Assembly: GCA_963713925.1 (NCBI GenBank) | Contig: OY970212.1 | Location: forward strand, 256,001 to 320,000 | DNA from: an uncultured bacterium | GTDB lineage: Bacteria; Babelota; Babeliae; Babelales; Vermiphilaceae | Direction: 5' to 3' | Length of the DNA: 64,000 bases | Part shown: piece by piece, positions 54,007-55,567 of the stretch | Numbering within the stretch: the stretch's first letter is position 1 | Layout: every line of letters starts with the position of its first letter | Notes under the pieces: generated by a model | Seen by the model: only the letters and a program-made list of their open reading frames with translations | What the model was told of the DNA's origin: nothing | Databases searched by the model: none | Program-made: the position numbers and the translations under genes

Positions 54007-55567
54007 CGTTACTATACCCAATCTCGCTGTCGCTTCCGCCTTCGCCAATCCGTCTTCGCCTAAAGGCTATGCCGGGACAGGGGCTATGGCGGGACGAGAC
54101 GCTTCGGGGCCCGTTACAATCATACTCTTTGGTATTACCGGAGATTTGTCTCGCAGGAAAATTATTCCCGCATTATATCAGATGGTAACTCAACACGGAT
54201 GGAAATCCTGGTCATTGATTGGGGTTGCTCGTGAGCAAAAAACTATCGAATCAATTCTGAATGAGGTGCGCTCATTCATTCCAAGTATCAAAGAAGATGC
54301 ATGGAACAATTTTATATCCCATTCTTCCTATTTTCCCTTGGATGCTCGATCATCACAATCGTATCAAGAATTAGCGCAGCATATTGATCAGCAAGAGGCG
54401 AAACATAACAGTGGCAATATGGGCGAGAGCGCAAGCGGCTTGTCACGCCGTAACTCAAAGAGTGAAGGCGGAAGTTTGGGTAAAAATAATCGGCTTGTCT
54501 ATCTGGCCGTAGGGTCGGATCTTTTTTGCTCTATCACCGCCGCATTAGCGCAATATGGAATTGTGAAACGAGTTGCGAGCAATGAGCCGTATTGGCATAG
54601 AATTATTTATGAAAAGCCATTTGGCGACAGTCAACAGTCTGCCCATGCCATCAATCAATGCATTAGTGAACATTTTTACGAAACGCAAATTTACCGCATC
54701 GATCACTTTTTGAGCAAGGAATTGGTTGCCAACATTGCGCTGGTTCGCTTTACGAATGCAATTTTTGAGCCCTTGTGGAATAACAAATATATAGAACATG
54801 TGCAGATTGTTCTGAATGAAGAACTTGATGTAGAAGAAAGATCTCTGTTTTATGATCGGTATGGCGCTTTGAGTGATGTTGTGCAAAATCATATGCTTGA
54901 GATGCTTGCGCTCATTGCAATGGAGGCCCCCGAGCAATTGTCGGGAGACTTTGTCAGAAACGAGCGCTTAAAAGTGTTGTCAAAAGTCAGTTTTGTTGAT
55001 GGCATCAGAGGCCAATATCGAGGATATCTTCAACACGAGGGTGTTGCGCAAAATTCAACGACCGAGACATTTGCCGCGCTTACGCTTGCGGTTAACAACC
55101 CGCGCTGGCAGGGCGTTCCTTTCTTTTTAAAAACAGGCAAAGCATTGCGTGAAAAAAATACATCGATCCATATCAAATTCAAACACGTTAATTGCCTGCT
55201 CTCTTCCAGCTGCCCGAGTGAATCAAACTATTTGACAATCAACATAACTCCCGACGCGGGATTTGTGTTGCAGTTGAATGCAAAAAAGGTGGGAGCATCA
55301 TATGAAGTGACTCCGGTTGAAATGAAATTTTGTCACAGCTGCTTGTATGGCCCTTTTACAACGGAAGATTACCAAACGCTTTTGTCTGAAATTATAAAAG
55401 GAGACCTGTCAATAGCCGTTCGGTTTGATGAGATAGAGCAATGTTGGAGAGTTATTGATACTATTAAACAACAAAACATTCCGATCAGCATATACGAAAA
55501 AAAATCGGCCGGTCCGGATGAATTAGAAGAATTTGAAAAGCGACATACTATGAGGTGGCGTTCGTGA
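53999..55567 (+). CDS. zwf: Glucose-6-phosphate dehydrogenase with two palindromic insertions
   Basis: FGITGDLSRRK, EKPFG, YRIDHFLSKE, DVVQNH, RWQGVPFFLKTGK. Confidence 0.95.
   Translation: MNNVTIPNLAVASAFANPSSPKGYAGTGAMAGRDASGPVTIILFGITGDLSRRKIIPALYQMVTQHGWKSWSLIGVAREQKTIESILNEVRSFIPSIKEDAWNNFISHSSYFPLDARSSQSYQELAQHIDQQEAKHNSGNMGESASGLSRRNSKSEGGSLGKNNRLVYLAVGSDLFCSITAALAQYGIVKRVASNEPYWHRIIYEKPFGDSQQSAHAINQCISEHFYETQIYRIDHFLSKELVANIALVRFTNAIFEPLWNNKYIEHVQIVLNEELDVEERSLFYDRYGALSDVVQNHMLEMLALIAMEAPEQLSGDFVRNERLKVLSKVSFVDGIRGQYRGYLQHEGVAQNSTTETFAALTLAVNNPRWQGVPFFLKTGKALREKNTSIHIKFKHVNCLLSSSCPSESNYLTINITPDAGFVLQLNAKKVGASYEVTPVEMKFCHSCLYGPFTTEDYQTLLSEIIKGDLSIAVRFDEIEQCWRVIDTIKQQNIPISIYEKKSAGPDELEEFEKRHTMRWRS
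54007..54117. repeat. Three-level nested palindromic insertion (A>B>B) flanked by a CGTTAC direct repeat
   Basis: CGTTAC at 54007-54012 and 54112-54117, 105 bp apart. Confidence 0.85.
54439..54485. repeat. Family B element inside zwf
   Basis: cttgtcacgccgtaactcaaagagtgaaggcgga. Confidence 0.75.

Follow-up and report, generated by a model that had tools for sequence, protein, structure and literature searches.

The glucose-6-phosphate dehydrogenase gene (zwf) of this uncultured bacterium carries, at codon 5, an in-frame insert of 105 nt (35 extra amino acids) in which short repeats of two families, here named A and B, are nested in the order A(B(B)). The insert is real and not a product of chance, and the reading that we favour, with some reservation, is that of a composite of two non-autonomous families similar to REPs and to the Rickettsia palindromic elements (RPEs), in which A(B) was pre-built and then delivered to zwf and the inner B was added.

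The genome (G000) is a single 1.32-Mb contig with a GC content of 41%, and the window, i.e., the whole stretch of 64,000 nt that was analysed, corresponds to its bases 256001–320000; positions are those of the window unless they are called genome positions. The genes form a pgi-zwf-gnd run, in which the start of zwf overlaps the last 8 nt of pgi, stop codon included, and the insert lies near the 5' end of zwf. The features of the locus are:

52669..54006, forward strand: pgi, the upstream gene
53707..53737, reverse strand: degenerate A that adds about 10 residues to pgi in frame (weak profile match, E 0.67)
53999..55567, forward strand: zwf (glucose-6-phosphate dehydrogenase), 522 aa, an open frame with two repeat-derived inserts
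54007..54012, forward strand: left copy of the flanking duplication
54013..54034, forward strand: A element, 5' part, with the core starting at 54015
54035..54048, forward strand: outer B element, 5' part
54049..54081, forward strand: inner B element, 33 nt, placed precisely in the loop of the outer B
54082..54098, forward strand: outer B element, 3' part, with a rare GAG end
54099..54112, forward strand: A element, 3' part
54112..54117, forward strand: right copy of the flanking duplication, its first base common to the end of A
54416..54488, reverse strand: second in-frame zwf insert, an A(B) composite of 69 nt (23 aa), from orthologue alignment and profiles

As the initial annotation had reported, CGTTAC occurs at both 54007 and 54112, a spacing of 105 nt, and taking out the interval yields MNNVTIILFGITGDL, a normal zwf start. 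The three-level nest proposed there was also borne out, as excision of the inner unit (54049–54081) leaves a B that scores 30.5 bits against the B profile of the genome, and the additional excision of the outer B leaves a 34-nt A with 18.2 bits against the A profile, while the intact insert gives no A match. The three pieces measure 41 nt (A plus duplication), 31 nt (outer B) and 33 nt (inner B). This structure is not unique to zwf, as other three-level nests are found at genome positions 143890–143990 and 899135–899240. Calling the insert a palindrome was correct in that hairpins are present, but these are weak and imperfect, and the 105-nt sequence folds no better than shuffled versions of it (z of +1.69 as DNA and +0.19 as RNA), so that stability provides no evidence here. 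A search of the insert against Rfam gave nothing credible (one miRNA match with an E-value of 0.4).

Orthologues were compared as the initial annotation had suggested: 29 zwf sequences were fetched, 3 were removed by a motif filter, and the 35-aa insert is absent in 26/26 of those displayed. The zwf product itself matches Pfam G6PD_N/G6PD_C, scores above the TIGR00871 cut-off, and retains the invariant active-site columns, including EKPFG, DH and QNH, in an alignment of 30 sequences. The same comparison brought to light the second zwf insert, missing from the earlier list of features, which consists of an A core (54421–54482) with a 34-nt B inside it (54439–54472) and an imperfect flanking duplication; its length (core of 62 nt plus 7 nt, i.e., 69 nt) agrees with a 23-column gap in the orthologues. 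Both zwf inserts are thus absent from orthologues and keep the frame, in line with the earlier proposal of an RPE-like in-frame insertion into a core enzyme. The degenerate A in pgi coincides with about 10 alignment columns that 21/22 neighbouring pgi orthologues lack (about 6 in the remaining one), and further in-frame A copies add 9–12 columns to a class I aminoacyl-tRNA synthetase and 12–16 columns to a Mur ligase (13 orthologues compared in each case). Long ORFs at genome positions 85613, 125340 and 970183, one of them TonB-like, also contain single in-frame B copies, located in stretches of low complexity.

With profiles built from the genome's own copies, nhmmer returned 117 matches to A and 56 to B at E ≤ 1, compared with 0 and 1 in the reversed genome; A and B are genuine genome-wide repeat families. 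The A core comprises 25–36 nt and the B unit 31–34 nt. Most matches are intergenic (87/117 for A and 45/56 for B), according to a crude gene caller (82% coding), with several of the cases inside genes being doubtful ORFs. No replichore bias was detected (31/70 A and 19/44 B on the leading strand). B forms a hairpin with a split stem and a 3x3 internal loop, and its ends read TGTC on the reverse strand in 36/41 copies and CGTC in 5/41, while the GAG end of the outer B in zwf is shared by 2/41 B ends. A strict B pattern was found in 17/60 relatives and a strict A pattern in 2/60, neither with control matches; a loose B pattern was dropped (73 matches vs. 39 in the control). Within the window, three B-like units are nested in the absence of an A shell at 1470–1590, and a B lies within another B beside a start codon at 59073–59135 (reverse strand). 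Composites recur at unrelated loci, with one A-in-A family present at 7 places, once with an added B, and others at 4.

The two families insert by different rules. When near-full-length B copies were excised, 14/32 left behind an A (12 cases) or a B (2 cases), all in the same orientation, compared with 6/1000 for random intergenic excisions. The junction left by excision of the inner B matches 11 empty B sites, the best with 1 mismatch and no duplication, and B inserts precisely, without duplicating its flank. The hairpin targeting that had been suggested for the whole insert therefore applies to B, which prefers existing hairpins, but not to the zwf target itself, which is ordinary coding DNA with no hairpin.

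The target-site duplication proposed for the insert is likewise a property of the A family, where it exceeds chance, and not of B. Among 138 A copies, anchored direct repeats of at least 4, 5 and 6 nt flank 22, 12 and 4 copies, against 7.1, 2.7 and 0.9 in permutations, and 0/1000 permutations reach 12/138 for k ≥ 5; nevertheless, 126/138 copies have no exact 5-nt duplication, the geometry varies, and some of the cases are tandem-array spacers or AT tracts. Pairs of empty and filled A sites show a clean 6-nt duplication at genome position 168168 and a 5-nt one at 1008542, while other pairs show unrelated tails; the flank added per insertion is 5–8 nt in the pairs judged clean and exactly 7 nt in both zwf inserts. 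At 69 external A pattern matches, many of them due to chance, the same test was not significant (2 vs. 0.8), and one external locus (L225) has a 6-nt duplication at its A. In zwf, A itself ends on the C at 54112, with which the right copy begins; the duplication proper is therefore 5 nt if exact, or 6 nt with one mismatch, and part of it could be the tail of the element, judging from the sequence of a related composite (the sister A(B) described below), since the right flank of that copy also starts with GTT. The A duplication is real, and it is compatible with either a staggered cut or microhomology-guided capture. In our model, each A insertion would add about 7 flanking nt, leaving a recognisable 5–6-nt duplication in a minority of copies. 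With regard to MITEs, for which terminal inverted repeats and a target-site duplication of constant length are the criteria, duplications are enriched in A yet confined to a minority with variable geometry, and B has none.

The sequence of B leads to a nuclease gene. Besides uvrC, the genome encodes four small stand-alone GIY-YIG proteins, each with its own hairpin family, and one of these genes (80 aa, genome positions 1102682–1102921) is located behind tRNA-Thr with B-like hairpins on both sides. B is the reverse complement of the gene-proximal hairpin upstream of this gene, and it is to the GIY-YIG-proximal hairpin that the inner B of zwf is closest. Relatives of the 80-aa protein were collected from 109 foreign loci (29 from related genomes and 80 from GTDB, the latter including alphaproteobacteria and Patescibacteria). 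With a pattern drafted by eye after B was known, the tRNA-proximal hairpin was found at 83 of them and the gene-proximal one at 80 (0 in reversed controls), and a same-strand tRNA lies within 450 nt at 76. A profile made from 73 foreign gene-proximal hairpins gave 49 matches at E ≤ 1 across the genome, with 0 in the control, and the inner B was the second best of these (E 7.8e-4); one foreign hairpin (L079) is identical to the inner B in 30/33 nt. Used alone, the B profile of G000 matched only 5/29 and 10/78 upstream flanks. The hairpin stems covary, with 182 paired cells in the inner stem against a maximum of 165 in 1000 permutations that ignored kinship. This GIY-YIG type is present in 16/17 relatives with the strict B pattern and in 19/43 without it (Fisher p 3.5e-4, overstated by kinship, the genomes being related and partly incomplete). 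Rfam detected only tRNAs above threshold at 14 of the GIY-YIG loci, and NCBIfam has no model for the 80-aa protein. As to the Ssn nuclease domain cd10448, the protein has 31% identity to the Ssn-like GIY-YIG of the same genome, and its weak PDB matches are UPF0213 and SLX1 proteins.

By analogy with Ssn, we propose that B may have been spread by its neighbouring GIY-YIG nuclease, each B being a free copy of the hairpin just upstream of the stand-alone gene with a preference for the loops of existing hairpins. The enzyme would cleave the single strand next to the hairpin, and the end of B, two bases before the TGTC tag on the reverse strand, fits such an Ssn-like cut. For A, 6 predicted genes have a copy of it on each side, none of them nuclease-like, and no common protein was found at 74 metagenome pattern matches and 8 G006/G011 loci. 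A broader and tentative proposal is that a tRNA-linked, non-Ssn clade of 80-aa GIY-YIG proteins might mobilise its own 31–34-nt hairpin into loops without duplication, with A ferrying the resulting nests into genes as in-frame modules. If true, this would be a two-tier, transposase-free route to new peptide segments in core enzymes, in which the reading frame would serve as the filter.

It is possible, if doubtful, that B was moved by another agent (a lost tyrosine transposase, host recombination or template switching), with the GIY-YIG protein being a passenger or only a cutter, like SsnA. HUH/Y1 transposases typically insert without duplication, as B does, and a 30-codon Y1 fragment exists at genome position 735855; moreover, the 80-aa nuclease has no obvious joining activity, and the portions of Chenal et al. 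(PMC11893778) that concern the enzyme show cleavage, with mobility only hypothesised. The Y1 fragment is, however, truncated, with no B copy seen in its displayed flanks, and the B hairpin is kept beside this GIY-YIG type across phyla, both of which speak against another agent.

Several related arrangements were noted. The Y1 fragment (genome positions 735855–735944) belongs to an IS200-type transposase. At least 11 of the 38 tRNA genes directly precede the tRNA-proximal hairpin of the GIY-YIG cassette, although only one such nuclease gene remains. Two UPF0213-like GIY-YIG genes, 81% identical to each other (genome positions 353976–354257 and 141650–141931), each lie between two inverted hairpins of a third family, which has about 70 copies genome-wide, many of them bearing an A. 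The GIY-YIG gene at genome positions 104371–104679, which we take to be of the Ssn-like family, is flanked by TGTC-tagged NTS-like hairpins (28 copies vs. 0 in the control). In other genomes, high-scoring A copies occur within about 40 nt of tRNA 3' ends, at the foot of the tRNA-proximal hairpin (L193, L195, L214, L218, L221, L239, L240, L258, L265 and L269, of which L258 also has the GIY-YIG gene).

At the protein level, AlphaFold with 30 sequences predicts the core with confidence (mean pLDDT 82.5) and the inserts as coil at residues 1–34 and 142–159, the former preceding the first strand and the latter lying in a loop between a helix and a strand; low pLDDT is expected there because the alignment has no rows at these positions, and a single-sequence model was uninformative (pLDDT 38). 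Initiation at the conserved upstream ATG would give a flexible 35-residue N-terminal extension before the first Rossmann fold strand, predicted from sequence to be translated and probably near-neutral. We consider it unlikely that translation instead starts at the in-frame ATG at 54086, within the outer B, which would leave about 6 extra residues and make the remainder of the insert a 5' leader. This codon does have a purine-rich run upstream, and many repeats at ORF N-termini may be extragenic, as pointed out in the relevant passages of PMC3733652. The frame is, however, open from 53999 across all 35 codons, an openness that chance would not demand. The upstream start retains the overlap of 8 nt with the end of pgi, a stop lies at the same position in 18/24 displayed orthologue starts (counted by eye), and the second insert, being inside zwf, has to be translated.

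With regard to the order of events, the initial annotation had envisaged serial insertions into the gene. Nesting by separate events was upheld, but stepwise growth inside zwf was not, as A with its duplication is 41 nt long and shifts the frame, and the second insert behaves likewise. In a zwf allele with A only, the frame stops after 41 codons and offers no in-frame start, while both A(B) and A(B(B)) preserve the frame; at the second site, A would likewise shift the frame if it lacked its 34-nt B. Genome position 589561 carries a sister A(B) with 54/65 nt (83%) in common with the zwf composite, and with the same insertion point and the same rare GAG end. Judging by these sequences, A(B) was probably pre-assembled elsewhere and delivered whole, as A alone is out of frame at both zwf sites, where two independent rescues are unlikely, and as the sister A(B) and other recurring composites exist at unrelated loci. 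Since the sister is 1 nt shorter than the zwf composite, a later indel could have set the frame. B would thus have entered an A copy outside zwf first, the 72-nt A(B) unit would then have inserted at codon 5, and the 33-nt inner B would have joined before or after this delivery, with selection keeping only in-frame, stop-free products in zwf. The order that we infer rests on within-genome logic, as the 61 genomes searched include none of the same genus and no closely related zwf whose site is empty or filled in part.

In the rival course of serial growth, A would have broken the zwf frame in place, a B would have restored it as a suppressor, and a second B would have followed, which we regard as quite improbable. 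B clearly targets A copies already resident in the genome, the outer B supplies an in-frame ATG, and zwf may be dispensable in this taxonomic order (found in 53/61 genomes searched and not found in 8/61), all of which would suit growth in place; yet this course needs a null allele rescued twice in one gene, in a family where zwf was found in 36/36 genomes, while the sister A(B) is present at another locus and no convincing gene is currently broken by an out-of-frame A (an excision test gave 5 candidates, none convincing by eye).

Misassembly of repeat-rich reads is very unlikely despite the abundance of repeats and the fact that, among the contigs listed, none crosses the right junction, as the sequence of the insert is unique, its length preserves the frame and its junctions obey the family-wide rules, and as a separately assembled contig from run X1, possibly the source sample, covers 53844–54090 with no mismatches. 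This contig includes the left junction and the whole inner B, which are therefore not artefacts of the present assembly; in runs X2 and X3 the organism was not found.

The origin and movement of RPE-like coding palindromes are an open question: the sections of PMC3733652 on CGTC-type repeats report no transposase for them, and for Ssn, mobility is put forward only as a hypothesis in the corresponding parts of PMC11893778. Here, a single zwf insert defines exactly where the elements end and which targets are preferred, the same genome offers both filled and empty sites, a specific enzyme can be named as the candidate, and the mobility hypothesis is therefore directly testable. The frame arithmetic indicates that long coding inserts can form outside genes and arrive complete. 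In-frame palindrome insertion is already known from Rickettsia, which limits the surprise; what this analysis adds are the junction rules of the two families and the evidence for the delivery of pre-built composites.

Elsewhere in the window, long inverted repeats (up to 115 nt, 86%) at 43068–43493 and 45695–46085 flank two ORFs, one resembling a zinc-dependent dehydrogenase and the other Ku (named by eye), which suggests a MITE-bounded or composite mobile cassette. An ORF at 57453–58349 (reverse strand) has a long N-terminal repeat region rich in Gly, Phe and His.

Searches of the openly accessible literature returned no account of these repeats, nor of a cassette in which a tRNA-linked GIY-YIG gene is combined with hairpins. 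Among known systems, the CGTC-tagged REPs have, in the account of Di Nocera et al. (2013, PMC3733652), uninterrupted stems of 8–9 bp with AT pairs first, a loop of 4–5 nt and a CCA tail, and REPs inserted into other palindromes are mentioned in the same account. B resembles them in being a small hairpin that has intragenic copies and ends, on one side, in a TGTC/CGTC tag left unpaired, but its stem is split and it has no CCA tail, while A differs in ending in GGGCCC/GGACCC. The REP/REPIN systems with their RAYT tyrosine transposases likewise comprise non-autonomous hairpins that are served in trans and insert precisely, but neither the A nor the B consensus contains their GTAG tag, and no intact RAYT was found with PF01797 in this genome, the only trace being the truncated Y1 fragment.

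B also resembles the Ssn system. According to the relevant sections of Chenal et al. (2025, PMC11893778), SsnA recognises its hairpin in single-stranded form, and its cut falls a few nt upstream of the NTS. In both systems, a small stand-alone GIY-YIG gene is accompanied by a cognate hairpin, further copies of which are dispersed over the genome, and the start of B on the reverse strand, ahead of its TGTC, may be comparable to the position of the SsnA cut. On the other hand, the published SRM pattern matches neither zwf insert and gives 3 matches in the genome vs. 3 in the control, although it is not exhaustive and also misses the genome's own NTS-like family; in addition, the B hairpin is interrupted by its internal loop, and the 80-aa nuclease lies behind tRNA genes, a term ('tRNA') absent from the main text of PMC11893778. 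By sequence, B thus appears tied to a GIY-YIG/hairpin system that is related to, but distinct from, Ssn/SRM.

For the zwf insert as a whole, RPEs are among the nearest comparisons. They are described, in the passages devoted to them, as dispersed palindromic repeats, mostly intergenic, some of them in frame in housekeeping genes at peripheral positions (PMC10969869, PMC3733652). The genome studied here similarly has dispersed matches to both families, with in-frame copies in intact housekeeping genes of a small-genome bacterium (zwf twice, pgi, the class I aminoacyl-tRNA synthetase and the Mur ligase), and here, too, the inserts occupy peripheral positions. The differences are that RPE units are about 100–150 nt long with a conserved peptide, while the A and B units (25–36 nt) would be translated from either strand and have no conserved peptide, that the long zwf inserts result from the nesting of two families, and that the lineage is another one. 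NCBIfam includes RPE models, and neither zwf insert matches any model in it. The zwf insert thus works like an RPE but stands outside the RPE family.
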